Of a stretch of 64,000 nucleotides of DNA, positions 404-61,697 are shown one piece after another; positions within the stretch are counted from its first letter, which is position 1; every line of letters starts with the position of its first letter. Both the position numbers and the translations under genes were made by a program. The DNA lies in the NCBI GenBank assembly GCA_045565775.1, contig JBJLES010000008.1:177408-241407 (forward strand), given 5' to 3'. The stretch comes from Pseudohongiellaceae bacterium (GTDB taxonomy: Bacteria; Pseudomonadota; Gammaproteobacteria; Pseudomonadales; Pseudohongiellaceae). A model generated the notes under the pieces. That model saw nothing but the letters and a program-made list of their open reading frames with translations, was not told the DNA's origin and made no database searches.

Positions 404-973
404 GTGAACGAGCTTATCTACAATTTTGCGGTATGGTTGGACGATACCGCTTATAGCGCCATGCTGCATGAGTCGTATTACATGTATAACTGGGTTGAAT
501 CTACGCACGTTCTGACGCTGATGATTAGTCTTGGTATGTTGTTTCTAATTGATTTAAGAATGCTTGGATATGCTTTCCCCGACGTGCCAGCTTCCAAGAT
601 CGCAGAGCGCTTAAATGTGCCTATGCTTATTGGTTTCTCGGTAATGTTCGTGACTGGAATCCTTCTGTTTTATGCAGTACCAGTTCGGAGTTCACAAAGT
701 CTATGGTTTCGTATCAAATTAGTATTATTAGTGGCATGCGCCGTTAATGCATATCTGTTTCACAGAAGAATGAGCGACTCTGTATCAACGTGGGATGGCG
801 ATGCGAAAGCGCCCGATCGAATCAGGCTGGGCGCGTGGTTGTCACTTGGGTTTTGGTCGATCGTAGTTATATGTGGAAGATTCATCGCTTATGATTGGAT
901 GGATTGTATCAGGGACCAGCCTGCTTTCATTGAATTTTTGGCAGGCTGTATAGAGGGTCAGACTCGTTTCTAA
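404..973 (+). CDS. Four-helix membrane protein, uncharacterised family, type-1 member of a paired module (paralogue of 36196-36702 and 58866-59366)
   Basis: GTG start. Hydrophobic helices carry the shared motifs ESTH (helix 1), DLRMLG, F-x2-K-L-x6-A-x2-N and a C-terminal CGRFIAY, all repeated in the two paralogues. Confidence 0.65.
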   Translation: MNELIYNFAVWLDDTAYSAMLHESYYMYNWVESTHVLTLMISLGMLFLIDLRMLGYAFPDVPASKIAERLNVPMLIGFSVMFVTGILLFYAVPVRSSQSLWFRIKLVLLVACAVNAYLFHRRMSDSVSTWDGDAKAPDRIRLGAWLSLGFWSIVVICGRFIAYDWMDCIRDQPAFIEFLAGCIEGQTRF

Positions 974-1007: not shown

Positions 1008-1589
1008 ATGCCCACTTCAATATTAGGTCCCTACACGAGAACTATTGTGACAGGCGTTATCATTTGGATAACTGTTGTTTTTTGTTTTACATTAATGCCT
1101 AACGCTTATGTCGGAATATTCCCGTTCTTTGAGTGGATGGAAACTACTTGGTTTGGAGTAATAGGGAAAACATGGGGTGCCGCTTTTGCGTTTGTGCAAA
1201 CCATTCACCTCTTAAGCCTTGCATTATTAGGAGGCGCGGTTCTTGCGGCAGAGGGTCGCATACTGGGGCTTCTTCTCACAGATGTATCGGCGCAAATTGT
1301 TATCGAGCGGTGTCACGTATTGTTGGTCTGGGCATTGGTGCTGTTAATTTCAACCGGTGTATTTATGGCCTGCGGAGTCGCATTGAAAGTTTATTACTTG
1401 CCTGTCTTTTGGTACAAAATGTTGGCACTGGGCACTGGAATTTTGTTCCACTTTTATATCAGGAAGCCACTATTCAGATTTGATTTACAACAAATCAATC
1501 CGATTGTTGTGAAGATGACTGCTATCGCATCGATTCTCGTCTGGTTTATGGTGGCTGCTACTGGGCGCTGGATTGGCTTTAGTGGTTAA
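1008..1589 (+). CDS. Four-helix membrane protein, type-2 member of the paired module (paralogue of 36713-37216 and 59439-59978)
   Basis: Lies 34 nt downstream of the type-1 gene. Motifs are QTIHLL, GRILG, FWYKML and a C-terminal TGRWIGF. The overlapping ORF 1133-1483 in another frame has no such support. Confidence 0.65.
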   Translation: MPTSILGPYTRTIVTGVIIWITVVFCFTLMPNAYVGIFPFFEWMETTWFGVIGKTWGAAFAFVQTIHLLSLALLGGAVLAAEGRILGLLLTDVSAQIVIERCHVLLVWALVLLISTGVFMACGVALKVYYLPVFWYKMLALGTGILFHFYIRKPLFRFDLQQINPIVVKMTAIASILVWFMVAATGRWIGFSG

Positions 1590-27527: not shown

Positions 27528-27588
27528 AAGATTGAAACTGACGGGACAGCAATTAGCATCAATCAGCTTTTGAGGGGCCAGTGTATAG

Positions 27589-28506: not shown

Positions 28507-28618
28507 AGAGTTAATTGGTTTGGACTAGCCTGTTGAGCGAATAATAAACTAAAAAGAGTTCTTTGTTGGCCGAAGTAATCTATGGTGTCAAGCAAAACGC
28601 GATGGAGTAAAAAAATAA

Positions 28619-29890: not shown

Positions 29891-29900
29891 ATTACGGGAA

Positions 29901-30644
29901 ATGAAAATGAGCTCAGTGATAGACTTACTGAAGTCGCACCGAAGTATCAGGAAATTTACAGATAAAGCAATTGACCCAGAAATATTGAATGATATTTTTC
30001 TAGCGGGTCAGGCTGCCGCGACATCCAGTTTTTTGCAAGGTTCTACAATAATTAGAGTAACTAACGAAAGAACGAGAGAGACTTTAGCAGAATTAGCAGG
30101 TAATCAACCATATGTTAGAAGCGCTGCCGAATTTATGGTGTTTTGTGCTGATCTTAAAAGGGCCGGAAACTACTGTCGAGAGTACGATAAGCCTTTTGAG
30201 GGTGACTATACAGAGCACTTTATTATTGCGACTGTTGACGTAGCACTGATGGCACAGAGCCTAGTCACGGCGGCGGAATCAGTTGGGTTGGGGATTTGTT
30301 ACATTGGCGGTATCAGAAATAATCCGATTGATGTTTCTAAGTTGCTCAAGCTCCCTATGGGGGTGTATCCGGTTTTTGGTTTATGCTTAGGATATCCAGA
30401 TCAGAATCCAGAAATTAAACCTAGGCTGCCTCTTTCCGTTATTGTGAAAAATGAAGTCTATAACGAGGATAGCGATCAAGAGAAAATTAGAGAATACGAT
30501 GAAACCATAAGAGAGTATTATCGAAATCGAACTGGTGGTGGTCATGGCATAAGTTGGACAGAACAAGTAGCAACGCTACTCTCTGAAAAATCTAGACCAC
30601 ACATGAAACAATTTCTTGAGGCTCAAGGTTTTAAGTTTAAATGA
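29901..30644 (+). CDS. nfsA: Oxygen-insensitive NADPH nitroreductase
   Basis: LLKSHRSIRKFTDKAI at the N-terminus and overall NfsA-like sequence, 247 aa. Confidence 0.82.
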   Translation: MKMSSVIDLLKSHRSIRKFTDKAIDPEILNDIFLAGQAAATSSFLQGSTIIRVTNERTRETLAELAGNQPYVRSAAEFMVFCADLKRAGNYCREYDKPFEGDYTEHFIIATVDVALMAQSLVTAAESVGLGICYIGGIRNNPIDVSKLLKLPMGVYPVFGLCLGYPDQNPEIKPRLPLSVIVKNEVYNEDSDQEKIREYDETIREYYRNRTGGGHGISWTEQVATLLSEKSRPHMKQFLEAQGFKFK

Positions 30645-30646
30645 TA

Positions 30647-31147
30647 TTAGTAGTCCTTAGTCGAGTTCTTAATTGTTTCTCTTCTATAGGCTCCAGTTGC
30701 GGGTAAATCTTCTTTTTTGTTACTAACCTGGGCCGCAATGGTTTCCGAGGGTGGGATCGCATCATCACCAAACGCAAACTTGAATTCTCCATTTACTAAT
30801 CCACGAATATCATCAGTGACCGACCATCTGGCGATAAAATACTCAGATGCGGGTAATTCAAATGGTATCGGTAGGACAAAGTTATTGTTTTTGCGGTTAG
30901 GGTCATATTTAAAAGCAATATCAATCCATTGCTCGTCTGCAGTATATAGCGCGAGTTTGAGTAGTCTGACGTCAACGCGAAAGCTCATGGTTACCATTTT
31001 TGGTGGATCAATCAATACGGCATCGTCTTGCGGAAATGTGACTCCAGGAGTTAGGATGCCGTGAGAATGCTGCGCGAACGAACTTGCAGAGGCAAAGCAA
31101 ATACTAAGAATAAAAGCTAAAAAGAAAAAGTTATTCATGCGATACAA
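30647..31147 (-). CDS. Secreted CopC-like domain protein (non-canonical)
   Basis: A signal peptide followed by QHSHG...PQDDAVLIDPPKMVTMSFRVDVRLLKLAL. This shares the P-x-D/G..L...P..V.L.F...VRLxKL layout with the CopC at 27156-27527 and is clearly homologous to 32088-32684. Confidence 0.5.
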   Translation of the reverse strand: MYRMNNFFFLAFILSICFASASSFAQHSHGILTPGVTFPQDDAVLIDPPKMVTMSFRVDVRLLKLALYTADEQWIDIAFKYDPNRKNNNFVLPIPFELPASEYFIARWSVTDDIRGLVNGEFKFAFGDDAIPPSETIAAQVSNKKEDLPATGAYRRETIKNSTKDY

Positions 31148-31191
31148 AAATCACCGGTTTCTAGAATACTCATAAATATTTTGACGTAATT

Positions 31192-32052
31192 TTAAGAAAA
31201 ATACACCATGCATTGCCGCGATAAGGCGCATAAGCGACCTTCTTCATCGTAAATCTTACCAGATTGTTGAGTATAGCCGTTAGCGGCGGCATCAACTAAG
31301 AATTCTAGATAAAACCAATTTGAAGGAATCTCGTCGGGTGGAATAACAAACTCCAACGACCAAGTCAGTGAGCTGGAAGGCACCGGGGGCTTATCGAAGT
31401 GAGAGAGAATGACTGGGGGAGGGATATCAGAGACTGTAATTAATTTTTCCGCAGGGAATTGATTTAGGTCTGTGTTGTGACGAACCCACATTGCTAGCTC
31501 ACGACTTAATTTCCCAGCAAAAGGCAATCCCTCGTTTACCCATTCTCCGTCGAAGAATTGAAGAAACCCCGGAGTTTGTTTAGCGTGATCTTCGAATTTC
31601 ACACCAGAGCCTCGTGGTGCTAGCTTTAAATTTTCAACTGACCTCACATTAAATGTCTCTCGAGAATGGCCGAAAGCGGCCATGGCTCGCAAACAGACAT
31701 TACCCCCACAAAGAACAGAGGCTTCCAGCTGAGTTACATTTTTCCCTTGCCGAATAATTTCAGCTTCAACTTTCACGATGCCAGGGGGTACTGGAGCGAT
31801 GAACGATACCATTAACGACCGCATGGGCTGATTTGGTGAGACTAATTTCCGCATTGCCGTGACAGCAAATGCGGCCGATATACCGCCGAACGCAGACCGC
31901 CCTTGCGACCAGCTTTCATCGAAAATTGTGGTATTGTTATCGCTCTCTTGTAACGATCTAAGAATTGAATCTAAGTTAGAAGGCTGCATTTTCTGGGTAA
32001 TAAAATACTTATTTGACTGGTCTATTAAATTGCGCAGTGTGCTATGATTCAC
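31192..32052 (-). CDS. Acyl-CoA thioesterase (TesB-like double hotdog)
   Basis: 286 aa. The N-terminal segment SQGRSAFGGISAAFAVTAM and the protein size fit the TesB-like thioesterase family. Confidence 0.7.
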   Translation of the reverse strand: MNHSTLRNLIDQSNKYFITQKMQPSNLDSILRSLQESDNNTTIFDESWSQGRSAFGGISAAFAVTAMRKLVSPNQPMRSLMVSFIAPVPPGIVKVEAEIIRQGKNVTQLEASVLCGGNVCLRAMAAFGHSRETFNVRSVENLKLAPRGSGVKFEDHAKQTPGFLQFFDGEWVNEGLPFAGKLSRELAMWVRHNTDLNQFPAEKLITVSDIPPPVILSHFDKPPVPSSSLTWSLEFVIPPDEIPSNWFYLEFLVDAAANGYTQQSGKIYDEEGRLCALSRQCMVYFS

Positions 32053-32087
32053 AAACTGACACTTTCTAAGTGCATGTCTGTTCTGTA

Positions 32088-32684
32088 ATGAAAACTTACT
32101 CTAGCTACATAAAATTTCTTTTAGCTCTATATGTGCTACTTGGTCTCTCTCTAAGCCAAAAAGTACTTAGTCAGCCTTTTTCGATTCCAAGATTTTTACA
32201 ATCAACGGATGTTACAGGAATCGCGGTTAAAACTAAAACTTCTCCGCCAGATGACTCTGTTCTGGCTGTTGCGCCGAAAGAGATGAATATAGAGTTCCCA
32301 ACTCCTGTGCGATTAGTAAAACTGACACTGCGTAAAGAAGAGCGAGACTGGGTCGATATTAATTTTCGTTATTCGCCCACGAATAGCAAAATTTATGAAT
32401 GGTCTTTGCCAGTTCTGAGCCCTGCTCCTTATTATACAGCAGACTGGGCTATACTTGCGGCGAACGATAGATTAATTCGAGGAAGCTTCAGTTTTTCTTT
32501 CGGGCCCAACGCTCAGCTGCCTTCTTTGGTTAAGGCGGAGGAGGACGAGTTACTTTTACAAAGGTATGGTGATCCCACGATCCGCTATGTGCCGCCGCCT
32601 CGGACTCAAATCATAATCAATCAGGATCCACCACAATTTGATCCGCCTTTTACTATTCAGTTGAATCAACAAGTTGATCAGTAG
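32088..32684 (+). CDS. Secreted CopC-like domain protein (non-canonical, no N-terminal His), with a Pro/Gln-rich tail
   Basis: SPPDDSVLAVAPKEMNIEFPTPVRLVKLTL...W.DINFRY.P is homologous to 30647-31147. The ORF is open from GTG 32070; the start is placed at ATG 32088. Confidence 0.5.
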   Translation: MKTYSSYIKFLLALYVLLGLSLSQKVLSQPFSIPRFLQSTDVTGIAVKTKTSPPDDSVLAVAPKEMNIEFPTPVRLVKLTLRKEERDWVDINFRYSPTNSKIYEWSLPVLSPAPYYTADWAILAANDRLIRGSFSFSFGPNAQLPSLVKAEEDELLLQRYGDPTIRYVPPPRTQIIINQDPPQFDPPFTIQLNQQVDQ

Positions 32685-32687
32685 TGA

Positions 32688-33629
32688 TTACTCTTCGACG
32701 TGCACAGTAATAAAGGCATCATGATAGAGTCCCCCATCATCAGCTCGGCCCCATAGCACATAACTGCCGGGAGACTCAAAGGTTGCTGTAATATTGTACA
32801 CTCCATCTTCAGGAACTGACGGTGGGAGCCATAATTCACCCCACGGAGAGTTTGCAGAAGTTCGCGTGTCTTCCCAAGGTTTTGGTAATGGCGGATCGAA
32901 GGAAACTTCTCCTTCTCCGCGGTATACGTTCCACGATAGGAATAACCCATTAATTTTCCCAACGGTGACTTGTGAGGGTCGTCTCATCATACGGCTATCT
33001 AATTCTTCGGAGGTGCCTGTTCTCTCCCTTCTCGGTTTCGGTAAGCCGTCATCCCAGACGTGAGTCGTTAAGTTAACAGGTTCACCAACACGAGCTACTC
33101 TAACCTGATCTCCCTGTATGGTAACGACAGGTGGTACATTTGCTCGAGACTCGGGGCTGCTTGTTCCTGCGCCGAGCGAACCAGTCTCTGAGGCAATAAC
33201 CATATTATCGACTAGGTAATCTTGCCTGAGAGTGGCAAAGGCTTTGCGTTCGACCCCATTTACGTTCAGCGTCCAAACTAGTTCCCTGTCACCCCAGTCG
33301 GACGGCACATTAACCTCGAACGTGAAACGATTCCGCCGCGGTAGGAAGTGAGTTGGCTGACCTCGATCCGCCTCGCCTGGCGAGAAAAAATTACTTTCCC
33401 CCACGCCTACATCAGGTTCTTCCTCCCAATTTTCGTTCATATAACCGAATATCATGCTAAACGAGCCATCAGGATTAGGTTTCCATCCTTCAAAGGCAGG
33501 TTCGACGTGTTGACCGGATGTGTATGTCTGCGTGTGCGAGGCAGAGGGAGAGAGAGACAGTGCTGATAAGAATAGGAACAGAACTAGACCTTCAGTTCTG
33601 CTCCTTTCTCGAAAGGATAAATACATCAT
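32688..33629 (-). CDS. Hypothetical secreted protein, co-transcribed partner of the cytochrome c / His-rich protein
   Basis: 313 aa with a signal peptide. Lies 9 nt downstream of 33639-35078. No family motif recognised. Confidence 0.5.
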   Translation of the reverse strand: MMYLSFRERSRTEGLVLFLFLSALSLSPSASHTQTYTSGQHVEPAFEGWKPNPDGSFSMIFGYMNENWEEEPDVGVGESNFFSPGEADRGQPTHFLPRRNRFTFEVNVPSDWGDRELVWTLNVNGVERKAFATLRQDYLVDNMVIASETGSLGAGTSSPESRANVPPVVTIQGDQVRVARVGEPVNLTTHVWDDGLPKPRRERTGTSEELDSRMMRRPSQVTVGKINGLFLSWNVYRGEGEVSFDPPLPKPWEDTRTSANSPWGELWLPPSVPEDGVYNITATFESPGSYVLWGRADDGGLYHDAFITVHVEE

Positions 33630-33638
33630 GACCCACCC

Positions 33639-35078
33639 TTAGTCGTTGGCAGCTACCTCATTGCTGTCTTCTTCCTCATCAAGGATCGGAGCAACAAGCG
33701 GGGCGCCACATAGGGGGCATCCAATAACGTGATCGTTGGGCCCGAGGTTGAGCGCGTCTCGCCTTTCTGCCATGGCTTCATGAAATTGCTCGTCTGTCAT
33801 CGTTACCCTGATGCCGAGATCAATAAACATATTGGTAACAGAACGGTTTCCAGAACCCTGCCAGTTCCGAGGGTCTGGGACGTTGGGGTTCGTCTCGGAG
33901 TTATTCATGTATCCAACGATGTGGAGGATTGTGCCTTTGGGAAGAAGAGGTGCAGCATTCTCTGCGTAAGGATAGCCCCTCACCCAGTTATGGTCATAGC
34001 CCACGCAAGAGAGTGTTTCAACCGTATAACCCCAGATAGCCTCAAGACACATCCTCTCACCCGGTGCATGGAGGTGTGGTTCGAAAGTGATTACTTTGGT
34101 GTGTTGATTTAGCACTGTATAGGCGTGCAACTCCTGATTACTCTCGTTACCAGCAATGCTGATGTCTACGCCATTTCCAAGGGCTATAAACGATGCTTGA
34201 TATTTCGGTTGATAGTCTTTTTCGTGAAATCGAAACCCAATTTCTAGGTGCCCTGTTGTGTCTTTCCCGTTAGAGTGTAAGTGAACTGAATCTGACACGA
34301 TCCAGCTATTGGCTTTGAGCAATCGACCTGCGTCTGCGTCAAAAATATCTGCATTTCGACCCACTTCATGCACTGGCCATGGTATGGATAGTCCAGGCAC
34401 ACGCTCTTCATTCTCATCAACTTGAGCTGTGGCCCAAATCATATGATGAAAGATATAACGCCCACCCACTGTTTCACGCCCAGTTCCAGCTTGATTATCT
34501 ACATCGTTTACTTCAACTACCTCTACCGATTTGACGTATCTATCTTCGGTTAGACCAGTAGGAACAGAGTCTACTTCACCCCACCAATCTGCGGTTCCTG
34601 CTAACTTAGTCACATCATTTAGTTTGACTATTAGATCTGGTTCCCCAGCGCCCCATTTCACGCTATCGTCAAAAGCGATAGGGTCGGGCGCGTCTGCTTC
34701 ACTACCTTTTGGTGTTCCACTGCGAGCCCAGTTTGATATGGCCGCGATCTCTGCATCTGACAGCGAGGGATCATCCTTGTATTCTTGGATACCTATATTC
34801 TTTTCCATATACCATGGTGGCATCGCGCCAGCCTTATCTCGCAAACCAGTTTTATACTCAATCAAACCGGCAAATGGGGCCACTTGTTCATAGGTCACTA
34901 GCGGCATGGGTCCTGCTCCGCCTTCACGGTGACAACCTTGGCAGCTCCGCTGAAGGATAGGCTCTATGTCTTTGTGAAAAGTCAGTTCTTCAGATTGAGC
35001 AAAAGCTGACCCGGCTGGCATAAGCGTGAACGCAGCTGTGGCTATACTGAGGATTGATTTGGTGGAAAGGATGCGCAT
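33639..35078 (-). CDS. Secreted mono-haem cytochrome c domain fused to a His-rich beta domain (possible copper monooxygenase-like)
   Basis: A signal peptide followed by FHKDIEPILQRSCQGCH...MPPW...SDAEIAAISNW, which resembles the Planctomycete-type cytochrome c domain. The C-terminal part carries HH (211-212), HxH (266-268), HxH (335-337) and later Met residues. Confidence 0.6.
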   Translation of the reverse strand: MRILSTKSILSIATAAFTLMPAGSAFAQSEELTFHKDIEPILQRSCQGCHREGGAGPMPLVTYEQVAPFAGLIEYKTGLRDKAGAMPPWYMEKNIGIQEYKDDPSLSDAEIAAISNWARSGTPKGSEADAPDPIAFDDSVKWGAGEPDLIVKLNDVTKLAGTADWWGEVDSVPTGLTEDRYVKSVEVVEVNDVDNQAGTGRETVGGRYIFHHMIWATAQVDENEERVPGLSIPWPVHEVGRNADIFDADAGRLLKANSWIVSDSVHLHSNGKDTTGHLEIGFRFHEKDYQPKYQASFIALGNGVDISIAGNESNQELHAYTVLNQHTKVITFEPHLHAPGERMCLEAIWGYTVETLSCVGYDHNWVRGYPYAENAAPLLPKGTILHIVGYMNNSETNPNVPDPRNWQGSGNRSVTNMFIDLGIRVTMTDEQFHEAMAERRDALNLGPNDHVIGCPLCGAPLVAPILDEEEDSNEVAAND

Positions 35079-35285: not shown

Positions 35286-36086
35286 TTAGGTGCGGTCGCT
35301 ACCTCTTATGAGCGACCAAAGATTGCTACTAGCCAGAATTGCACCGAATATGACGATCAAGCCGAAGGTAAACCATTGAATTGCATAAGATAAATTCTGG
35401 TTAACGTCAGCATAAACTGCGGGCCAATGGCGAACAAGAACTCCTGCTTGGTCTTCCGTGAGGCGAACTTCAAAGGGGAAAACCTCCTCGCCTAAAATGT
35501 TAGCTATGACATCGATCTCTAAAGAACGAAGACGAAGAGGCCACTTATTTGGGTTAATTTCACTCGGGATAACCCTGGCATTGGGAGGAGGCACATATAC
35601 TTGCGCGTTGACCTCGACGGCACCTTCAAATGGCCTAATGGAGGGCTCAGTGTTTGCTGGCAGGATTCCAGAGGTCCAACCTCGATGGACGAGCACAAGC
35701 CCCCCGGTTCCAGCTAGCCTGAAAGGCGTGACGACCCCGTACCCTATTTGACCGTCAAAAAATTCTGCGAGCACCAATATGGTTCTTTCGTTAACATATT
35801 CGCCTTGGAGCTGGACATGCCTATTTTGCATAGCTGGATTTGCTCTATGCAGATGCCCTTGAGGGATATCCTCGATAGGTCCTGCGCTTTGCTCGAGTTC
35901 CAGTTCAAGGGCTTCTTGAGCTTCCACTTTTTCCGCTGCTCGACCAAGTTGCCAAATTCCCAAGTTAAGAAAGGTCAACGCGGTTGCAAGAACACACGCT
36001 GTTATTAGCCAGTTAATTTGAATTTGAAGAGCGCCCATTTGAAATTCGCGTGTAGTCATGCAAAAGCCCTCTGATCCCGTCACCAT
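35286..36086 (-). CDS. SURF1-family protein (cytochrome oxidase biogenesis)
   Basis: An N-terminal helix with LGIWQLGRAAEK, a central LVHRGW, and a C-terminal helix after YAIQWF are all SURF1/Shy1 hallmarks. The start may be 36059 or 36038. Confidence 0.8.
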   Translation of the reverse strand: MVTGSEGFCMTTREFQMGALQIQINWLITACVLATALTFLNLGIWQLGRAAEKVEAQEALELELEQSAGPIEDIPQGHLHRANPAMQNRHVQLQGEYVNERTILVLAEFFDGQIGYGVVTPFRLAGTGGLVLVHRGWTSGILPANTEPSIRPFEGAVEVNAQVYVPPPNARVIPSEINPNKWPLRLRSLEIDVIANILGEEVFPFEVRLTEDQAGVLVRHWPAVYADVNQNLSYAIQWFTFGLIVIFGAILASSNLWSLIRGSDRT

Positions 36087-36195: not shown

Positions 36196-36702
36196 TTAAC
36201 ACAACCAACACCAATGATAAGGGGGTCGAAAATAGGTGATTAGCCGCCCGCAAATGATGACTATCGTCCAGCATATCAAAGACAGTCCAGCGATCAGTTT
36301 TGCTTGCTCAACGACACTGTTTGTTGCGTCGGTAGCTTTAACTTGTTTTGAGTATGTTGTATAGAACCAGAAAACATTTAAACCAGCGACAAACATGAAA
36401 AATAGCTTTGTTTGAAAAGCAGGGTTATAGATATATTGATCAGGAGCTGTGGTTAAAAACATGATTCCGGTCATGAGGTTGAGAAAGTAACCCAAGACTC
36501 CAATCTTTACGAGTTTATGCATGTCTAGATACGCAATCCCTCGCCCAATTCCTAGCATTCGCAGATCAAACACGCCGACTGTGCCTATCAGCATAGCAAG
36601 CCCTAAAAAGTGAATAGACTCCGCGGTTGGCCAACCCCAGGGACTATTCATGAAGGTATAAATGCCGGTAAATTCTGAAAAGTTGGAGAGCAAATCCACC
36701 AT
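36196..36702 (-). CDS. Four-helix membrane protein, type-1 member of the paired module
   Basis: Motifs ESIHFL, DLRMLG, NPAFQTKLFFMFVAGLN and CGRLITY, shared with 404-973 and 58866-59366. Confidence 0.65.
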   Translation of the reverse strand: MVDLLSNFSEFTGIYTFMNSPWGWPTAESIHFLGLAMLIGTVGVFDLRMLGIGRGIAYLDMHKLVKIGVLGYFLNLMTGIMFLTTAPDQYIYNPAFQTKLFFMFVAGLNVFWFYTTYSKQVKATDATNSVVEQAKLIAGLSLICWTIVIICGRLITYFRPPYHWCWLC

Positions 36703-36712
36703 AAACTTGGCC

Positions 36713-37216
36713 TTAAAAAAAACGAGACGCCAGCAGCACGCTGTTGGTGTAGGCCAAAAATCGGCCAGTCGTGATAGTGGTAATCCAACATAGTATAGAA
36801 ACTAGCGCTAACCATCTAATATTTTTAGAAATCGACTGATTACTGCTCCGAGTTCTAATTTGATCATGTAATTTTCGAGCAATCAGCAGCCCAACAGATA
36901 GCGTAATTAACTTCGTATAAAAAACGGGGTTTGTAAGCGCTTTTGCGGGATAAGCTAGTAGCAAGGCAAATCCCGAAACGAATATCAGAAAGACCGCGCC
37001 CCAGTGTATTTGGTAGAAATGCAATAAGGGCCTGAGTGCAAAAGATGGAACAAGGCCAATTAGCCGAAATGCGATGGCTAAATTGATCCCCACAACCAAC
37101 GCCATTGAAAGTGAGTGAAGGGTTAGTGAGCCAAAGAAGGCCACTCCTGATTCACGAAACCAAATACTAAGAGCTGTTTCCTCTAGACGGGCGAGTATTT
37201 CCAATTTTGATCTCAA
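36713..37216 (-). CDS. Four-helix membrane protein, type-2 member of the paired module
   Basis: Motifs LTLHSL, FRLIG, NPVFYTKL and TGRFLAY. Lies 10 nt upstream of the type-1 gene. Confidence 0.65.
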   Translation of the reverse strand: MRSKLEILARLEETALSIWFRESGVAFFGSLTLHSLSMALVVGINLAIAFRLIGLVPSFALRPLLHFYQIHWGAVFLIFVSGFALLLAYPAKALTNPVFYTKLITLSVGLLIARKLHDQIRTRSSNQSISKNIRWLALVSILCWITTITTGRFLAYTNSVLLASRFF

Positions 37217-37449: not shown

Positions 37450-38253
37450 ATGTTATTCATAAAGCAAAGATTTACTAATCTTGTAGCAGGATTTTCATTC
37501 TTAGTGTTTGCCGTAACCGCTCAAGCTCAGGGCGGTGATATACCAAGGACTGCCGACGGTAGGCCTGACTTCAGCGGTATCTGGCAAGCCATAGGTAGTT
37601 CTCATTACAATATTGAGCCACACTCGGCTGACTTTGGCCCGATGTTTGAGTTAGGGGCTATTGGTGCCATACCCGGAGGTTTAGGTATAGTTGAGGGCGG
37701 TGAAATTCCTTATACTGCGGCTGCCAGGCAGCAGCAAATGGATAATAAAGCAAACTGGTTAGAACTTGATCCCGTAGTTAAGTGTTACATGCCAGGGATT
37801 CCGCGCTCTAACTATTTACCTTTTCCTTTTCAAATTATCCAATCTCCAGAGCACATTGTGTTTGCTTACGAATTTGCAAGTGCAAGCCGGATAGTCTACG
37901 TCGATCAACCAGATTTTGAGTTTCCTATATATTCATGGATGGGACATAGCCTGGCTCATTATGAGGGAGATACGTTAGTAATTGACGTAACTGGCCAGGT
38001 TGCAGATACCTGGCTTGACCACGCTGGCAATCATCATACTGAGGAGCTAAGGGTAACAGAACGTTACACCCATATGGGTCCAAATGTAGTCATGTATGAG
38101 GCCACGTTGGAAGATCCTAATGTTTATACCGAACCTTGGAAAGTTTCATTCCCGCTGTATAGACGTTTAGAAGAGAATGTACAACTGCTAGAGTATAAAT
38201 GCGTTGAATTTACCGAAGAGTTGATCTACGGACATCTTCGAAAACAAGATTAG
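37450..38253 (+). CDS. Secreted protein of an uncharacterised 'GIW...EYxCxE' family (paralogue of 57729-58766)
   Basis: A signal peptide (AVTAQA), then DFSGIW, KCYMPG, WMGHSLAHYEGDTLVIDV, YEATLEDPNVYTEPW and LEYKCVEF. Each block has a counterpart in 57729-58766. Confidence 0.6.
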   Translation: MLFIKQRFTNLVAGFSFLVFAVTAQAQGGDIPRTADGRPDFSGIWQAIGSSHYNIEPHSADFGPMFELGAIGAIPGGLGIVEGGEIPYTAAARQQQMDNKANWLELDPVVKCYMPGIPRSNYLPFPFQIIQSPEHIVFAYEFASASRIVYVDQPDFEFPIYSWMGHSLAHYEGDTLVIDVTGQVADTWLDHAGNHHTEELRVTERYTHMGPNVVMYEATLEDPNVYTEPWKVSFPLYRRLEENVQLLEYKCVEFTEELIYGHLRKQD

Positions 38254-54747: not shown

Positions 54748-56392
54748 TTAATCGTCTAAACCAAACGTATATACAACGTTCCCGGAAGCGATAGTTACAT
54801 ATTGCTCGCCATCAACTTCATAGGTTATCGGTGCGGCATGGACTCGCCTCCCCAAGCTGATGTTCCATAGCTCTTCGCCGGTATTAGCGTTAAGGGCAAA
54901 GAAATAGCCATCAGCTGTCCCACTAAACAAAAGCTCGCCTGATGTGGTAGTGATACCAGCAGAGGAGCGAGGCATTATTGGAAACTCCCATACAGTCTCT
55001 GTGGTGGTTGGATCTACGGCGCGAATCCAGCTCTTAAAGGCGTCCATAGGTCTATCATAGCGGCCGCCACCACCCGTGTATCTCTCACCCTCTTCATAAT
55101 CTTCGTCTCTCTTAAAAAAGACTTGTTCACCGTCAAACGCGGTGACATAGAAAAGGCCAGTATCCGGACTAAACCCCGGGGAGTACCAATTGGTGCCTCC
55201 AGTAATCGGTGGTGAAACCATTATGCCTTCGTAGGTTGGAGCCATCCCGGGAACACGCACGGGCCGCCCGTTGGCGTCTAGTCCCTGCGCCCAAGTTTGC
55301 GTTGCAAACGGACTAGCTTTAAGGAACTCGCCATCGGCGGCATCGATGCTGTAGAAAAACGCGTTTCTGTTAGCCCACATCATGACTCGCCGGTCTTGAC
55401 CATCAATGTTCAAATCCGCGAGGATAGGAACCTGTATCGCATCCCAATCGTGGACATCGTGCGGCGTGAATTGGAAATACCAGTCGATTTCACCTGTATC
55501 TCCGTTCAACGCGAGTGCTGAATCTGAATAGAGATTATCGCCCAGCCGAACATCACCATTCCAGTCCGGCCCAGGGTTTCCAGTACCCCAATAAATGAGA
55601 TTGAGGTCTGGGTCATATGCGCCTGTGATCCAGGTTGCTGACCCACCAGTCTTCCAGCTATCCCCAGACCAGGTATCGTCTCCAAACTCACCCGGCTCGG
55701 GAATTGTGTATGTGCGCCAGGCAAGTTCTCCGGTGTCAGCATGATAAGCATCAATAAAGCCCCGAATCCCGAACTCACCGCCGGCAATACCTGTGACTAC
55801 TAGATCTTTGACAATTAGAGGTGCAGCAGTTTTAGAGTAACCAGAATCATGTTTTGCTACCTCGACATCCCAGAGTAAGTTTCCTGTGCGAGCGTCGATG
55901 GCTACAAGATGAGCGTCTAAAGTGCTCATAAAAAGTGTTTCGCCAAGAATTGCTACACCGCGGTTATTCCGGCCACAACAGATTCGGAGATCCTCTGGGA
56001 GCTCATGGTTGTATCTCCAGTACTGACGCCCAGTTCGTGCATCGACCGCGACTACATTGCTTGGGGCCTCCGTAATGAACATTATCCCATCAACTACCAA
56101 AGGCACGGTTTCCGCTCTATCAATTTCCGGAATTTGGTAGGCCCATTTCAGCTCTAACTCGTCAACATTGTCTATGTTAACTTGGGTCCAGAGAGCTGTG
56201 CCTCTGGGCGTCGAGCGATCCAGAGTACATTAACCAGTTTTGGGGCTCCTCCTTTGCATTAACTAACCGCTCCCATGTGATGGGCGAGAAGGCAGGGGTC
56301 ATTACGGTTTCAAACTCCTGCTCTTGCGCCGAAGCCTGAATATTAATTGTTGCTATTAAAAATCCAACAAACGTGAAAAGCACGCGTTTCAT
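54748..56392 (-). pseudogene. PQQ-dependent alcohol/methanol dehydrogenase family (XoxF/PedH-like) with an interrupted reading frame (one extra base)
   Basis: ORF 56177-56392 encodes the signal peptide and the typical N-terminus (EPQNWLMYSGSLDAQRHSSLD). The other frame continues as QVNIDNVDELELKWAYQ...VPLVVDGIMF into ORF 54748-56106. A vicinal CC is present (RICCGRNNRG). Length is 3n+1, and the break is at the GGG run at 56184-56186. Confidence 0.8.
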
Positions 56393-56393
56393 A

Positions 56394-57236
56394 CTAGTTC
56401 TCCTCTCTTCGCAGAGAAAATAGGTAGGCGACTAAATCGTCTAGTTCGTTTTCTGACATCGAGCCGTCGTAGCTAGGCATTGTCGATCGCTCAATACGCT
56501 CAATAGATCGAATATCGTTCTTTTGATAGGACCAAAGATTCGAGTCGGTGTCCATGATGCGCACTGAGAAGCTGTCTTCACCCATTCGGAATCCTGACCT
56601 AGTGATCCCGTCGGGGCCGGTGATTTCCAAAGTCCACCAACGTGGATCAACATCTTTATGCGGGTTGGTAATTGCCACCATTAAGTCTTCGGGTCGTGTG
56701 CTTTCTCCAACACGCGACAAATCCGGCCCTAACCTGCCGCCGTTACCTCTCACCATGTGGCATGAGGCGCACTCGCCTTTACCCTGGAATAGGGCAAGTC
56801 CAGAGTCAGCACTACCGTCTAGCTGAACTGAATTCGGATCGTATCTCAAGGACTCTATGTAGGCTACAAGCTGCCAGACTTGTGTGTCAGGCAAATCTGC
56901 GTCGACTGGCAGCATTGCGGTACCAGGCACACCGTTTCGAATTACGTTAAAAATCCCAACTTCATTGCTCGCCCGGTTTAAGCGACCGGTCAGGTCTGGC
57001 GCGCCGGTTTCGTCATTGCCTTTTGCGTCGAAGCCGTGGCATCGCGAGCATTGTCTCTCGAAGTATCTCTCACCGAGGCTCACATCATAAGGCGTGTTAT
57101 AAAGCGCACCCGCGTCCTCAGCCAAACTTGGCAAGCTAGTTAAGATGAATGGTAGCGCGGAAACATACATCAGGCGTTTCCACAGTAAATGTGCTTGATT
57201 AAGCATATCCGCTCCTTCCTCCAATATTAGTCCCAC
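56394..57236 (-). CDS. Dihaem c-type cytochrome
   Basis: Two CxxCH motifs (CSRCHG, CASCHM). The second domain has the long insert and MPSY...ELDDLVAYL ending of the Pirellula/Verrucomicrobium-type haem-binding domain. The stop lies 1 nt before the PQQ-ADH start. The true start may be 57206. Confidence 0.85.
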   Translation of the reverse strand: MGLILEEGADMLNQAHLLWKRLMYVSALPFILTSLPSLAEDAGALYNTPYDVSLGERYFERQCSRCHGFDAKGNDETGAPDLTGRLNRASNEVGIFNVIRNGVPGTAMLPVDADLPDTQVWQLVAYIESLRYDPNSVQLDGSADSGLALFQGKGECASCHMVRGNGGRLGPDLSRVGESTRPEDLMVAITNPHKDVDPRWWTLEITGPDGITRSGFRMGEDSFSVRIMDTDSNLWSYQKNDIRSIERIERSTMPSYDGSMSENELDDLVAYLFSLRREEN

Positions 57237-57417: not shown

Positions 57418-57732
57418 TTAATTTCGGGCGGCATAAGCTCCAATCGCCGCAAATCCTATCGCATCGACTCGCTCAGCGTCCCTTGAGTAAAAACTAATAG
57501 AATTATCTTCATTCACCCAGTGTTCAATCTCTCTCGACAGGAGTTCGTTTATGATGTCCTGTCGAATCTCAGAATTTCGCACATTAAAACTTTCGATTTG
57601 TAAATTATCGCTTGGAAGCGGACTTAAGGTTGGAGCAGGATCCTGAGTGCAGCTGGAAACGACTAGTAAAGCCGCGATAGTCATTATTCTCAGGGTCTGT
57701 TCAATCATTCGGCTGATTAGGATACAAATCAA
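57418..57732 (-). CDS. Small putative lipoprotein, hypothetical
   Basis: Lipobox-like LLVVSSC. The start overlaps the stop of 57729-58766 by 4 nt (ATGA). Confidence 0.45.
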   Translation of the reverse strand: MICILISRMIEQTLRIMTIAALLVVSSCTQDPAPTLSPLPSDNLQIESFNVRNSEIRQDIINELLSREIEHWVNEDNSISFYSRDAERVDAIGFAAIGAYAARN

Positions 57733-58766
57733 TTCGTGGATTGTTCTTTTTCAGCTCTTCTGGCGCCAGCCAAGATTCCTGGCATTGAGTAGTTTCCTTC
57801 ATGGCAAGCGTACTCATAAATCCTTCCTTCTAGCGGATAAAAACTGAGCTCAGCTGTCCATGCCTCGCGGTACAGGTCTGCGTCTTCGACCGTAAACTGG
57901 TATACGATTTCGTCAGTCGAGGAGCGAGTGAATCTCTCGATGATTCTCCCGTTAGGGGAGATTGGTATTGGGCTTTGGCTCATTTGTAATTTATTGATGT
58001 TAATAGTTTCTACTACTAGCGTAGATTCTTCATACCAACCAACGGAATCACCAAGCCACTGGTTTAGAGTGGAGGGACGATGATTTTTAGACGCCTCTTC
58101 CTTGGAGTCGAATAATGGGATAATTCGGGTGTCATGCACCATTTCAACCATTATCATGAGGTAGTCGTCAGTCTGAACAAATTGATAGCTGCTGTTGTAG
58201 AGCGTTCCCATCATGCCCGGGCCCGCTGTGTTTCCAAACCCTATTAAGCAGCGTTCCGCTATCGGGATAGCCTCTGGCCCAGATGCGTCTGCAACGCCTG
58301 TAACATAGCGGGCTCCAAATTGAGGTCGTTTTAGATCGTATTTTGGGTTTTCCAAAAACGGTATAGAACCGCTTTCAGGGCTTGTAATGTAGGAAGTTCG
58401 AAACTCCCCTTCAACTCTGGCGAGAGTAGAGCCAGGGTCGGTCCAGAATAAGTTGTATCCCCGTAAGCCAAAATCATTAGAGCCAGCGGGGGGTGCGCCC
58501 GTTTCCGGATCAATGGAGGGACCGTTTTCGATATTTTCCCTCGAAATACCAGCAATCGACAGATTTCTGACGATTTCCTGCGCTTGTGATGCGGATACGA
58601 CTAATTCTGTACCCCGCGGGCGAGTTAAGGAGGTGCGAGAGGCATTTGACCAAATCCCGGTCAAATTAGGGTGCTCGTCGATCTGCGCTAAAGATATATG
58701 CTGATGGCTAAGCAATACTAGCCCAAACATAAGAACGGGAGCGGATATAGGTTTTAACGATGGCAC
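57729..58766 (-). CDS. Secreted protein of the uncharacterised 'GIW...EYxCxE' family (paralogue of 37450-38253)
   Basis: A signal peptide, then NLTGIW, ERCLIGFG, WLGDSVGWYEESTLVVET, YQFTVEDADLYREAW and YEYACHEGNY, colinear with the blocks in 37450-38253. Confidence 0.6.
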   Translation of the reverse strand: MPSLKPISAPVLMFGLVLLSHQHISLAQIDEHPNLTGIWSNASRTSLTRPRGTELVVSASQAQEIVRNLSIAGISRENIENGPSIDPETGAPPAGSNDFGLRGYNLFWTDPGSTLARVEGEFRTSYITSPESGSIPFLENPKYDLKRPQFGARYVTGVADASGPEAIPIAERCLIGFGNTAGPGMMGTLYNSSYQFVQTDDYLMIMVEMVHDTRIIPLFDSKEEASKNHRPSTLNQWLGDSVGWYEESTLVVETININKLQMSQSPIPISPNGRIIERFTRSSTDEIVYQFTVEDADLYREAWTAELSFYPLEGRIYEYACHEGNYSMPGILAGARRAEKEQSTN

Positions 58767-58865
58767 AGCTAGACTCCTTTAAAATTCCTTAATAATGACA
58801 TTCGATACACAGGTGCTACGTTATAAATATAAATCCCTCGCGAACGCCGAGCAACTTTGCATTAA

Positions 58866-59366
58866 TCAGATTATATGGCCAACCCACCGTCCGGCCAACA
58901 TTACTCCGGCCCATAGAAAAAGAGAAAGGCTACCAACTATTTTCAGCTGGATAGAGGGGGCAGTGGTTGACTCATAGTGCTCTACATTCTTATAAAGTTT
59001 GAAGTGAAAGTAAGCCATGTTTAAGCCTGCTAGCATGAGCAAAATAATTTTTGATTGAAATGCGGGGTTTAAGACATGAGACGCTGCTCTAGTGATAAAC
59101 ATGCCAACTCCTGTGACAGACGCAATAGCGAAAGCTCCCCAAGCCCAGGGTAGTGATTCTCTACTCATAGTTTTTATCGGATATTGAATCGCTGCAACTC
59201 CCAAGAGCCTTAGGTCTACCCAGAGTATGCTGCCCACCACCATGGCTGCAGCAATTACGTGAATTGACTCGAGCAAAGGGAACCAGTTGGTGCCGCCAAT
59301 AGTCCAAGATATCGTCCATTCTTCAACATCAAGCCAAATTGTAGAGTTAAGAAAACTGGAAATCAT
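58866..59366 (-). CDS. Four-helix membrane protein, type-1 member of the paired module
   Basis: Motifs ESIHVI, DLRLLG, NPAFQSKIILLMLAGLN and AGRWVGH. Confidence 0.65.
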   Translation of the reverse strand: MISSFLNSTIWLDVEEWTISWTIGGTNWFPLLESIHVIAAAMVVGSILWVDLRLLGVAAIQYPIKTMSRESLPWAWGAFAIASVTGVGMFITRAASHVLNPAFQSKIILLMLAGLNMAYFHFKLYKNVEHYESTTAPSIQLKIVGSLSLFLWAGVMLAGRWVGHII

Positions 59367-59438
59367 TATGCCCTTGTTTAATATGTGGAATAAAAAGTAT
59401 CAGCGATATTCTTAAATAACTTTGTGAGTGGGAGATCG

Positions 59439-59978
59439 TCAAAAACTCCAAATCGGATATTGTAGATGTTCAAGATAAGCTATCCATCGACCTGCAAAAC
59501 TAACCATTAGCCATAGTCCAAGAGAGACGATGGCTAATGTTCTGCCGGACCATTTATTTTTCTCCTGCTCCCAGTAACCGGCTGTCTTTTTGTGCATTAT
59601 CATAAAATAGATCAATAAAGAGACAGCGGCCAGCAGGAAAAGCATCTTCCAAGCAAAGACAGGATTATTAAAGTATCTGGCAGGCCTTCCAAAAACAAAA
59701 AACGATCCCGAAATAACATTGCTTATCAACGCGGTATAAAGTAATGGTGCGATACGCGCAGTCATTTCGGTAATGTTTTGCGACGGGACGGCTACACCCA
59801 ATATTCTTAAATTTAATAGTACTGCAGTACCCATGACCGCTGCTATACCGAGAATGTGCACTGTCTGTATAATCGGCGGAAAACCAGGCACGTTAGTAAG
59901 GACCCAAAGTGCCCCTGCCTGCAGGACAGATCCTGTTAGCAGGTCGCCGATACCGATGAAAAAATCTGGCAAATTCAT
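59439..59978 (-). CDS. Four-helix membrane protein, type-2 member of the paired module
   Basis: Motifs QTVHIL, NLRILG, NPVFAWKML and AGRWIAY. Confidence 0.65.
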   Translation of the reverse strand: MNLPDFFIGIGDLLTGSVLQAGALWVLTNVPGFPPIIQTVHILGIAAVMGTAVLLNLRILGVAVPSQNITEMTARIAPLLYTALISNVISGSFFVFGRPARYFNNPVFAWKMLFLLAAVSLLIYFMIMHKKTAGYWEQEKNKWSGRTLAIVSLGLWLMVSFAGRWIAYLEHLQYPIWSF

Positions 59979-60015: not shown

Positions 60016-61697
60016 TTACAGGTATTTGTCCGTAACCGCACCCTCCGAGGCGGAAGCCACTGATGCAGCATATTTTGCTAATACTCCGCGAGTGTAGCGT
60101 GATGGTGGCTTTTCCCATAGAGCCAACCGTGCGTCTATCTCCTCGCTACTCAGCTTAAGTGTAATTTCATTTGATTCAGCATTAATTGATATGACGTCAC
60201 CATCCTTAACAATGGCTATAGGGCCGCCCTCATAGGCCTCAGGTGTCATGTGTCCCACTACGAAACCATGTGAGCCGCCCGAGAATCTTCCATCTGTAAT
60301 AAGTGCTACTTCTGCCCCTAAGCCCTTACCCATAATGGCCGAAGTAGGTGATAGCATTTCTCTCATTCCGGGAGCCCCCTTTGGGGCCTTCATAACGGAT
60401 AACGAGGACGTCACCCTTTTTTACCGTACCATTCAGGATGCCTTTCAGGCATTCCTCTTCTGAGTCGAAAACTCGGGCGTTACCCGTAAATGATAAGCCC
60501 TCTTTTCCGGTAATCTTTGCAACGGCACCAGTTGGTGCGAGATTTCCTTTCAAGACTACAAGGTGAGAGTCCTTCTTTATTGGGTTATTGAAGTTTCTGA
60601 TGATGTCTTGATCGCTTGGGTAAGCCTTAACATTAGCAAGATTCTCCTTCAGTGTCTTTCCCGTTACCGTCAGGCAACTGCCATCCAGCATTTCAGCCTC
60701 TAGCATTTCTTTCATCAAAGGCTGAATTCCGCCTATTTTAATTAGTTCCGACATGAGGTATTTGCCGCTAGGTTTAAGGTCCGCAACCATCGGAATTGTC
60801 TTACCAATACGGGTGAAATCATCAAGCTCTAGTTCGACATTCATGGTGTGAGCCATCGCGAGCAAGTGTAAAACCGCATTGGTGGATCCACCTAGGGCAA
60901 TTATGACCTTAATAGCATTTTCAAAAGCAGGCCGAGTCATTATGTCAGAGGGTTTTATATCACGCTCAACTAGGTTCATTATAGCTTCGCCCTGAGTTAA
61001 CGCAGTCATCAACTTTTGCTTGAGAAATTGCATCTTGAGCTGAGCTATTGGGTAAGCTCATACCCAACGCCTCTATAGCCGACGCCATGGTGTTCGCTGT
61101 GTACATTCCGCCGCACGAGCCCGGTCCGGGGATTGCGGTATCTTCGATTTGCTTGAGTTGAATATCTGAAATAGAACCAGCCGAGTGGGCTCCGACTGCT
61201 TCAAAGACAGAAATGATATTCGTATGATTAGGGCCGGGTTGTATAGTGCCACCGTACACAAATATCGAGGGGCGGTTTAATCTGGATAATCCCATCATCA
61301 GGCCGGGCATATTTTTGTCACAACCACCGATTGCGATGATGGCATCATGCCCCATGCAACCTGAGACTGTCTCAACACTGTCCGCTATTACTTCTCTTGA
61401 TACAAGAGAGTATTTCATGCCTTCTGTGCCCATAGAAATCCCATCGGAAATCGTAATGGCGTTATAGATAATTCCTTTACCTCCAGCGCTGTCTGTTGCT
61501 CGATTGACCTGTTCCGCAAGCTTGTCTATATGCATATTGCATGGTGTAACCATGCTCCATGTGGAGCAGATTCCAATCTGTGGCTTCTTAAAATCATCAT
61601 CATCAAAGCCGACCGCGCGGAGCATAGAGCGACTTGGCGCCTGTTCGACGCCATCTACTACAATACTTGAATGCTTGCGTAAGTTTTTGTTATTCAT
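60016..61697 (-). pseudogene. ilvD: Dihydroxy-acid dehydratase with the reading frame interrupted twice
   Basis: Three overlapping ORFs (60966-61697, 60326-61033, 60016-60414) are colinear with IlvD. Break 1 is at the T4 run 61014-61017 (QAK then LMTALTQ). Break 2 is at the C5 run 60375-60379 (YEGPKG then APGMREML). Total length is 3n+2, consistent with two inserted bases. Confidence 0.9.

Follow-up and report, generated by a model that had tools for sequence, protein, structure and literature searches.

The window analysed here is a stretch of 64,000 nucleotides (nt) from a Pseudohongiellaceae bacterium (assembly GCA_045565775.1, contig JBJLES010000008.1, forward-strand positions 177,408 to 241,407), and our subject is a family of membrane proteins, DUF6644, that it encodes as three gene pairs, one of them followed by genes for a secreted protein and a small lipoprotein. 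At this last locus four open reading frames (ORFs) lie on the minus strand: T1 (59439..59978; 179 amino acids (aa)), T2 (58866..59366; 166 aa), SEC345 (57729..58766; 345 aa), which is secreted and carries a signal peptide, a GIW motif, the cysteines C173 and C321 and a C-terminal EYxCxE, and LIPO, a small lipoprotein with the lipobox ...VVSS-C. The four ORFs, the last of them at 57418-57732, and the gaps of 72 nt between T1 and T2 and of 99 nt between T2 and SEC345 are as given in an initial annotation made from the sequence. The 4-nt overlap that it placed between SEC345 and LIPO also exists but is TTGA rather than ATGA, so that a TTG start codon overlaps a TGA stop. The mechanical LIPO ORF of 104 aa runs from this TTG at 57732, and an ATG 24 nt further in, near 57708, is the likelier start, so that LIPO proper is 57418..57708. 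T1 has a good Shine-Dalgarno sequence and begins 37 nt past the stop codon of an ilvD-family gene. A sigma-70-like promoter match (TTGGCC-17-TATAAT, 10/12) lies on the minus strand at 58870..58898, in the 3' end of T2 and upstream of SEC345; it is a consensus match only, and the region has no more such matches than shuffled sequence would be expected to give.

T1 and T2 each have four transmembrane helices and are paralogues of each other (26% identity across 136 aa, BLASTP E = 2e-15), and the motifs by which the initial annotation had connected the membrane proteins, QTVHIL/ESIHVI, [DN]LR[IL]LG, NP[AV]FxxK and GRW[IV], are all found in the window proteins. The two further copies of this pair (pair 1) that it reported, at 36196-37216 (pair 2) and 404-1589 (pair 3), are real, and the gene divergent from pair 2 on the plus strand (37450..38253) encodes SEC267, a secreted protein of 267 aa whose C-terminal 134 aa align with SEC345 at a BLASTP E-value of 2e-10, which makes the two true paralogues. 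When all window ORFs were scanned, exactly six DUF6644-like and exactly two SEC-like proteins were found. All six membrane proteins match the Pfam family PF20349 (DUF6644), five of them above the gathering score of 27 bits. In pair 1 the matches are E = 1.7e-9 (38.4 bits) for T1 and E = 5.8e-11 (43.2 bits) for T2. Pair 2, on the minus strand, consists of a 167-aa protein (36713..37216; E = 1.7e-5, 25.4 bits, just under the cut-off) and a 168-aa protein that ends in PPYHWCWLC (36196..36702; 28.8 bits). Pair 3, on the plus strand, consists of a 189-aa protein with a two-cysteine C-terminal tail (404..973; E = 2.4e-7, 31.5 bits) and a 193-aa protein that is the copy nearest to the Pfam model (1008..1589; E = 2.5e-48, 164.6 bits).

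The two membrane subunits are always paired and often fused

To follow the pair through related genomes, we gathered 80 species loci with the T1 alignment and scanned them with profile hidden Markov models and phmmer; 78 of these were evaluable, that is, not cut by a contig end. The homologues of the window genes fall in Pseudohongiella and other Pseudohongiellaceae. The proposal that the membrane proteins act as a functional pair was borne out, as T2 follows T1 in all 78 evaluable loci, and in 30 of the 80 the two form one uninterrupted in-frame ORF of about 345 aa that contains both domains, joined by the linker ...AYLEYLEYPLWYMEPYxDG.... Two-domain DUF6644 proteins also occur among the global representatives of the family; of the longer homologues, P0351 and P0352 are missing helix 1 of T1, and P0254 ends after helix 1 of T2. 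The hydropathy profile of a fused orthologue has eight segments, in agreement with four helices per subunit. Since the subunits are always paired and often fused, T1 and T2 probably form one complex, and natural fusion is the strongest genomic evidence that they do. The split in the window itself is genuine, as the 72-nt spacer is AT-rich and the closest relatives are likewise split.

The pairs are built from two distinct and ancient subfamilies. T2 and the proteins at 36196-36702 and 404-973 are A-type, T1 and those at 36713-37216 and 1008-1589 are B-type, and each pair that we examined consists of one subunit of either type; the heteromeric design therefore predates the triplication.

T1 and T2 are separated in 13 Pseudohongiellaceae loci by an additional gene, which encodes a secreted protein of about 160 aa, all-helical and with two cysteines (L018, at 8570-9052 on the plus strand, L019, L021-L025, L027, L029-L032 and L074). 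The same gene follows the fused gene in L081 and L082 (at about 9700-10230), and a remnant of it is present in L072. The protein has no Pfam match, and the window holds no copy of it.

One histidine per subunit within an invariant signature

Each DUF6644 domain carries a signature made up of a His in helix 1, an Arg in loop 1, a Gly in helix 2, F-x2-K in helix 3 and S-x3-W-x6-G-R in helix 4, which is invariant in the six window copies and in 26 diverse members of the family. In T1 the marked residues are His41, Arg58, Gly91, Lys111 and Gly163-Arg164-Trp165, and in T2 the first-helix His sits in ESIHVI. We counted conservation, in T1 numbering, across 134 single-domain representatives of 50%-identity clusters, or 129 for the C-terminal positions. 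His41, Gly91 and Lys111 are kept in all 134, Arg58 in 132 and Phe108 in 125; of the C-terminal residues, Trp156 and Arg164 are each kept in 128 of the 129, Ser152 in 127 and Gly163 in 126. The single conserved His per subunit that the initial annotation had noticed is thus a property of the family, and neither the 26 diverse members nor the 134 representatives revealed a conserved Met, Cys or second His. The annotation had also described a helix with a conserved Lys and Asn; the Lys holds family-wide, but the Asn is restricted to the T2 class.

Hydropathy gives four helices per DUF6644 domain. By helix order, His41 at the start of helix 1, the NPxFxxK motif at the start of helix 3 and the G-R-W motif at the end of helix 4 share a face with both termini, and the DLRxLG turn lies on the opposite face. 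Charge counts on 28 fused proteins show an acidic N-terminus and an acidic linker (mean Asp/Glu 2.2 and 5.6, respectively) and a slightly positive opposite face. Based on these acidic segments, and on the C-terminal cysteine pairs of related A-type subunits, we weakly infer a periplasmic position for the termini and the His site. The cysteine pairs occur in A subunits of the pair-3 type, both in the window and in loci L128, L129, L142, L147 and L160, where the C-terminal tail has two conserved Cys, for example NWFDCDRQPQPEWINWAAGC; the tail of the window protein at 404-973 reads DWMDCIRDQPAFIEFLAGC. The C-terminal cysteines of these subunits, and those in the PPYHWCWLC end of the pair 2 A subunit, could be periplasmic disulfides or metal sites.

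DUF6644 is a sizeable family with weak hints of a wider superfamily

All 210 homologues of T1, and 25 of 26 diverse relatives, match PF20349. A profile of the six window paralogues retrieved 7,745 clusters at 50% identity, 4,001 of them at E <= 1e-10; most of these proteins are 160-170 aa long with a single domain, and a few contain two. The family accounts for about 4 per million protein clusters. The Pfam entry consists of a name only, NCBIfam has no family that matches the six window proteins, a PDB sequence search with the fused DUF6644 profile gave no meaningful match, and we found no mention of DUF6644 in the literature searched. The initial annotation could assign the membrane proteins to no characterised family, and the profile scan agrees, as DUF6644 is the only family matched.

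Below threshold, Pfam matches recur on a few membrane families, namely DUF2214, UPF0093/HemJ, CopD and SirB. The best of these relatives is DUF2214 (PF09980; 3 of 26 members, best E = 3.3e-7), which is itself uncharacterised, with passing mentions only in the literature searched, and so is functionally uninformative. HemJ/UPF0093 (PF03653) is matched by four of the 26 members at E <= 1, at best with E = 0.0023 and 18.7 bits (the protein at 404-973); its gathering score of 34.2 bits is reached by none of the 26, and the NCBIfam HemJ model TIGR00701 gives 12.4 bits against a cut-off of 138. CopD (PF05425) is matched by three members, at best with E = 0.0064 and 17.3 bits against a gathering score of 32.1 bits, whereas the genuine CopD of the window scores 65.5 bits. 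Matches to DUF4405 occur only at E >= 0.04, in 3 of the 26. A likeness of the Lys-containing helix to the window CopD, suggested in the initial annotation, was not recovered, as hhalign of the DUF6644 profiles against that protein gave probabilities of 0.1-0.2%; this comparison of a profile with a single sequence has low power and leaves room for kinship at the superfamily level. We therefore assign the proteins to DUF6644 only, with weak hints in their sequences of a HemJ/CopD-like superfamily. DUF6644 proteins are catalogued, by their Pfam number and in some orthologues by the NCBI name 'DUF6644 family protein', but unstudied. Three features appear to be undescribed: the obligate pairing of A and B subunits, which are often fused, their invariant signature and, as set out below, their optional coupling to a large family of periplasmic proteins that lacks a Pfam model.

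The secreted protein and the lipoprotein form a separable cassette

The initial annotation had treated the four genes of pair 1, SEC345 and LIPO as one operon. To see what follows the pair elsewhere, we took the genes within 8 kb downstream of pair 1 in the 59 loci with at least 6 kb of downstream sequence. A SEC345-type gene is present in 9 of the 59, at distances of 61 to 5,837 nt, and LIPO follows it in 7 of those 9. Directly after T2 one finds instead a cytochrome c and a pyrroloquinoline quinone (PQQ) dehydrogenase (L005, L006 and L012), a peptidase (L004) or an FG-GAP protein (L007), and the combination of cytochrome c and PQQ dehydrogenase lies downstream of pair 1 in 23-24 of the 59 loci. 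Tight packing of T1, T2, SEC and LIPO is seen only in the closest relatives, L008, L010 and L011, with L009 cut by a contig end. In the relative L001, SEC345 stands near cytochrome c and PQQ dehydrogenase genes, about 30 kb from a fused DUF6644 gene, and in another relative it stands alone. Because a SEC gene accompanies pair 1 in only 9 of 59 loci, compared with T2 beside T1 in 78 of 78, the four-gene operon is not a conserved unit, and SEC345 and LIPO are a separable cassette. LIPO keeps closely to SEC345-type genes; among the 80 species loci scanned it was found solely downstream of them, and the two co-occur in L008, L010, L011, L052, L053, L070, L077, L078 and L083. Its lipobox Cys is kept in all 10 orthologues, in line with its earlier description as a lipoprotein, as is the C-terminal DAIGFxAIGAYAARN.

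SEC345 and SEC267 belong to a family of more than 7,000 clusters at 90% identity (7,662 homologous clusters for SEC345 and 6,963 for SEC267). The two proteins and 32 homologues match no relevant Pfam family at E <= 10, NCBIfam has no family for SEC345, SEC267 or LIPO, Pfam likewise has none for LIPO, and a PDB sequence search with SEC345 was empty. We also considered a DUF1329/LolA-like identity (PF07044), which is the UniRef name of the homologue P0201, and rejected it, as no such match was found at E <= 10, P0201 included. Both window proteins carry a signal peptide followed, close to the start of the mature chain, by a conserved GIW. Further invariant positions are a number of acidic and aromatic residues and two Cys, C173 and C321 in SEC345, which probably form a disulfide. 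AlphaFold2 models have mean confidence (pLDDT) values of 58 for SEC345, with a confident beta core at 190-315, and 66 for SEC267, and the confident cores of both consist of antiparallel beta strands. For both models Foldseek places FABP/CRABP/CRBP and lipocalin-like barrels first (E 1.5e-3 to 5e-3, target-normalised TM-score about 0.5), and the conserved polar residues E208, R214, E277, Y289, D295 and Y299 of SEC345 lie on the strands of the barrel. The modelled core is, with low confidence, probably a calycin-like ligand-binding barrel.

SEC genes meet DUF6644 pairs in distant loci

We next approached the association from the SEC side, in 80 metagenome loci, soil samples included, whose SEC proteins are 36-64% identical to SEC345. 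A DUF6644 pair, always as two genes, is present in 6 of these, and 74 have no pair nearby. The DUF6644 proteins of the six loci share 35-62% mutual identity and their A-type subunits are nearest to window pair 3, whose A-type subunit is 33-58% identical to the first genes of the pairs in L128, L129, L142, L147, L153 and L160. From the share of about 4 per million clusters we estimate, with no phylogenetic correction, that fewer than one SEC-side locus would have a pair by chance, so that the observation of six diverged loci places the link beyond chance. The linkage of the pair itself is kept across related genomes. Its linkage to the secreted protein, which had been proposed with it, is real but facultative, in about 10-15% of loci from either side, and recurs in six diverged lineages, which makes an optional functional connection likely.

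Gene order in these loci is more elaborate, the pair usually coming after tandem SEC genes, DUF6152 and a cytochrome c'-like lipoprotein. L128 and L142 share the order TonB-dependent receptor, CN-hydrolase, three SEC genes, DUF6152, a lipoprotein of about 145 aa with a C-terminal CxxCH, and two DUF6644 genes. L147 has five tandem SEC genes and DUF6152 and, on the other strand, a PQQ dehydrogenase, a cytochrome c'-like lipoprotein, HupE/UreJ_2, a 207-aa protein and two DUF6644 genes. In L160 the DUF6644 pair follows SEC after a gap of 3 nt. Tandem SEC arrays range from two to five genes. The label cytochrome c'-like refers to a C-terminal CxxCH and a weak match to PF01322 (E = 4e-4). The stretches that hold DUF6152 and the lipoprotein of about 145 aa are 10361-11262 in L128, 8915-9857 in L142, and 10912-11391 and 14314-14844 in L147. 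Once the predicted signal peptide is removed, DUF6152 (PF19649) begins directly with His-His. No DUF6152 gene lies in the window, nearly all pair-1 loci lack one, and we found no mention of the family in the literature searched. Of the 80 SEC-side loci about 10 have DUF6152, more than have the DUF6644 pair. De novo clustering of the neighbours of SEC genes yielded no dominant partner, and the second-largest cluster was an antisense-ORF artefact.

In L071, a metagenome-assembled Pseudomonadales, the stretch 9031-12600 holds a fused DUF6644 gene followed by an integron-integrase-like gene and small cassette-like ORFs; a DUF6152 gene there sits in the integron-like cassette array, and we did not count it as an association with the fused gene. 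In L128 (12429-16530) the pair is followed by pgl, zwf and a dehydratase of the ILVD_EDD family, probably edd. The presence of an ILVD_EDD-family dehydratase near this pair and of an ilvD-family one directly upstream of Pseudohongiellaceae pair 1 may be coincidence.

Surroundings of the three pairs in the window

An ilvD-family gene lies directly upstream of pair 1 in 61 of 69 loci. In the window this dehydratase (60016..61697, minus strand) is separated from T1 by a 37-nt gap and is spread over three ORFs in different overlapping frames, and in relatives it is one ORF of 559 aa. Downstream of LIPO, also on the minus strand, lie a dihaem c-type cytochrome of 280 aa (56394..57236; PF13442 and PF00034, two stretches each) and a PQQ-dependent dehydrogenase (54748..56106; PF01011, E = 1.4e-67). 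The latter is about 95 N-terminal residues short of its relatives of 547-549 aa, and a gap of 288 nt separates it from the cytochrome c gene. The breaks in the ilvD and PQQ dehydrogenase genes appear to be frameshifts, arising either from assembly indels or from pseudogenisation.

The A-type gene of pair 2 is followed by SURF1 (35286-36086). Orthologues of the pair 2 B-type subunit in L056 and L076 are 44-46% identical and have the same layout of two DUF6644 genes and SURF1, and the full window order of SEC267, two DUF6644 genes and SURF1 is found in L007/L076 and L056. In L028 a partial DUF6644 ORF is all that stands between SEC267 and SURF1, and the close relative L003 has a 310-aa gene, a 478-aa gene, SURF1 and SEC267 in this order and no DUF6644 pair.

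A copper-rich region extends over 27156-35078 and includes CopC (27156-27527), CopD (27589-28506) and two CopC-domain genes (30647-31147, minus strand; 32070-32684, plus strand). Genes for a conserved protein of 313 aa and for a protein of 479 aa follow the copper genes, upstream of SURF1 and pair 2, and the order of 310-aa, 478-aa and SURF1 genes is conserved in L003. Pfam and PDB gave no convincing match for either protein. That of 479 aa has an N-terminal CxxCH and the motifs FHHM, HLH and HLHAPGERM; we considered it as a PHM-like copper monooxygenase fused to cytochrome c and dropped the idea, as Pfam gives a weak cytochrome c match only. None of the three pairs has a CopC-domain gene directly beside it, and the CopC genes are at least 3.5 kb from pair 2.

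Pair 3 stands in the context AraC regulator, 45-aa ORF, pair, 56-aa ORF. The AraC-family regulator has 362 aa, of which the last 61 codons lie inside the window, and the 56-aa ORF (1626-1796) has a predicted membrane helix. In loci L168-L171 a COX15/CtaA gene (haem A synthase) lies about 5 kb upstream of pair 3. Two of the three pairs are thus near genes for haem a or cytochrome oxidase assembly, SURF1 by pair 2 and COX15/CtaA by pair 3.

Discussion

Tentatively, and at rather less than even confidence, we propose that the DUF6644 pair is a heterodimeric membrane b-type cytochrome that faces the periplasm and exchanges electrons with periplasmic partners. In this model, which is drawn by analogy with known membrane haemoproteins, the B-type (T1) and A-type (T2) subunits, with four helices each, would form an 8-helix pseudo-symmetric unit in the inner membrane. 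One b-type haem would be ligated by both helix-1 His, the Lys and Arg residues would hold the haem propionates, and the invariant Gly residues would permit close packing of the helices on the porphyrin. Electrons would be exchanged with periplasmic c-type cytochromes and PQQ dehydrogenases. SEC345 and LIPO, a separate and mobile cassette, would be a facultative periplasmic partner outside the core, with SEC345 as a beta-barrel protein of the periplasm, probably a binder of some small ligand, and LIPO as its lipoprotein partner. The neighbourhoods, which include cytochrome c, PQQ dehydrogenase and the cytochrome c'-like lipoprotein, fit a redox role; a CxxCH lipoprotein lies directly upstream of the pair in L128 and L142, and SURF1 adjoins pair 2.

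Several points weigh against this proposal. The case for haem binding is made from one His per subunit and from analogy, and the link to HemJ is sub-threshold (best E = 0.002) and seen in 4 of 26 members. The charge bias behind the topology is small. The redox neighbours in Pseudohongiellaceae may be inherited synteny in genomes rich in PQQ dehydrogenases, and the most constant neighbour, ilvD, follows no obvious redox-partner logic. In addition, the N-terminal His-His of DUF6152, HupE/UreJ_2, the TonB-dependent receptor, and CopC and CopD near pair 2 fit metal handling about as well.

A known system close to such a cytochrome is HemJ, or PgdH2, the protoporphyrinogen IX dehydrogenase, a small multi-helix membrane protein that forms a dimer and binds haem b (PMC13564367). 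As a cytochrome the DUF6644 pair would resemble HemJ, a homodimeric four-helix haem-b protein, and the sub-threshold HemJ matches cover helices 1-3; the natural fusions lend indirect support to a dimer-like organisation. The pair differs in that HemJ is a single-gene homodimer in haem-biosynthesis contexts, whereas DUF6644 consists of two diverged subunits or their fusion and has no haem-biosynthesis neighbours; the similarity is, moreover, under every curated cut-off. The haem ligand of HemJ is reportedly, in work by Skotnicova and colleagues from 2018, a His in the first helix. In the SdhC/SdhD heterodimer each subunit contributes one His. The small His-bearing membrane proteins DUF4405 and FezC have been shown to bind haem b, and according to AlphaFold models MsrQ and FezC work as homodimers (PMC11334425). 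SdhC/SdhD, DUF4405, FezC and MsrQ are, like DUF6644, helical membrane proteins with conserved His residues, which in their case ligate haem b. However, none has demonstrable homology to DUF6644, and they usually have two to four His per unit.

One rival, which we regard as rather unlikely, is that the association of SEC with the pair reflects rearrangement only, with no joint function: SEC345 and LIPO would go with cytochrome c and PQQ dehydrogenase, or alone, and the pair with ilvD, or alone. This explanation covers only the link between SEC and the pair and is compatible with either a haem or a metal cofactor. In its favour, 50 of the 59 orthologous loci have no SEC345-type gene within 8 kb downstream, T2 is directly followed by cytochrome c and PQQ dehydrogenase in L005 and L012, SEC345 lies about 30 kb from its DUF6644 gene in L001, SEC267 stands beside SURF1 with no pair in L003, 74 of the 80 SEC-side loci lack a pair, PQQ dehydrogenases are neighbours of SEC in 7 of 80 loci, a frequency close to that of DUF6644 pairs, and a promoter-like site separates SEC345 from T2. 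However, both SEC paralogues of the window adjoin DUF6644 pairs, in L160 only 3 nt separate SEC from the pair that follows it, and six diverged SEC-side loci have a pair where fewer than one was expected, with the identity of 35-62% among their DUF6644 proteins given above.

The main rival, though also unlikely in our judgement, is that the pair handles copper or another metal in the manner of CopD, the 8-helix unit taking the metal from a periplasmic chaperone across or into the membrane by way of its paired His. DUF6152, with its mature His-His start, could be that chaperone, as possibly could SEC. CopD/PcoD is itself an inner-membrane protein of about eight helices with a periplasmic partner, the DUF6644 unit has 4+4 helices that are often fused, and some of its loci have metal-related neighbours. 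The sub-threshold CopD matches of the three members are in a consistent register, with helices 2-4 against positions 10-100 of the CopD profile. In distant loci the pair follows DUF6152, whose His-His start resembles in sequence a histidine brace (the kind of copper site formed with an N-terminal His in CopC), HupE/UreJ_2 lies inside the L147 operon, a TonB-dependent receptor heads the L128 and L142 clusters, and the region of pair 2 holds CopC, CopD, two more CopC-domain genes and SURF1. Set against this, one conserved His per subunit, or per half of a fusion, offers few ligands for a Cu(I) or Cu(II) path where Met, Cys and a second His are not conserved family-wide, the profile comparison with the window CopD found nothing, the genome already encodes a canonical CopCD, no CopC gene is adjacent to the three window pairs, and DUF6152 is missing from the window and nearly all pair-1 loci.

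HemJ-type and PuuD-type relatives are oxidases that act on planar substrates, and the pair might by extension act on a small hydrophobic substrate, either as a membrane enzyme (a HemJ/PuuD-like oxidase or dehydrogenase) or as a carrier (for a lipid or quinone-like compound), with the SEC barrel delivering or removing the ligand in the periplasm. We consider this improbable, since the weak but reproducible matches of both SEC models to FABP/CRABP/lipocalin barrels, the conserved polar residues on the SEC strands and the tandem arrays of two to five SEC genes, which suggest ligand diversification, are offset by low model confidence (pLDDT 58 and 66), by the lack of a Foldseek match at E 1e-3 or better and by widely varying neighbourhoods that offer no substrate candidate.

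DUF6644 (about 7,700 clusters at 50% identity) and SEC are sizeable unstudied families of the cell envelope, common in marine Pseudohongiellaceae and reaching soil metagenomes. The natural fusions offer a single-gene construct, and the one His per half is an obvious target for mutants. A broader and doubtful reading is that the A and B subunits are a new class of periplasm-facing membrane b-cytochrome or redox-coupled metal gate that anchors a modular periplasmic system of SEC beta-barrel proteins, DUF6152 proteins with N-terminal His-His and cytochrome c'-like lipoproteins. If true, marine and soil Proteobacteria would have a new route by which an imported substrate is taken up or reductively processed, and in some bacteria the system would lie downstream of a TonB-dependent receptor. 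Should the pair prove not to be a cytochrome, a well-defined pair of unknown function remains. If it is one, as we tentatively propose, DUF6644 would add a heterodimeric member to the HemJ-like small membrane haemoproteins and would hint at the way in which certain periplasmic dehydrogenases and cytochromes are linked to the membrane.

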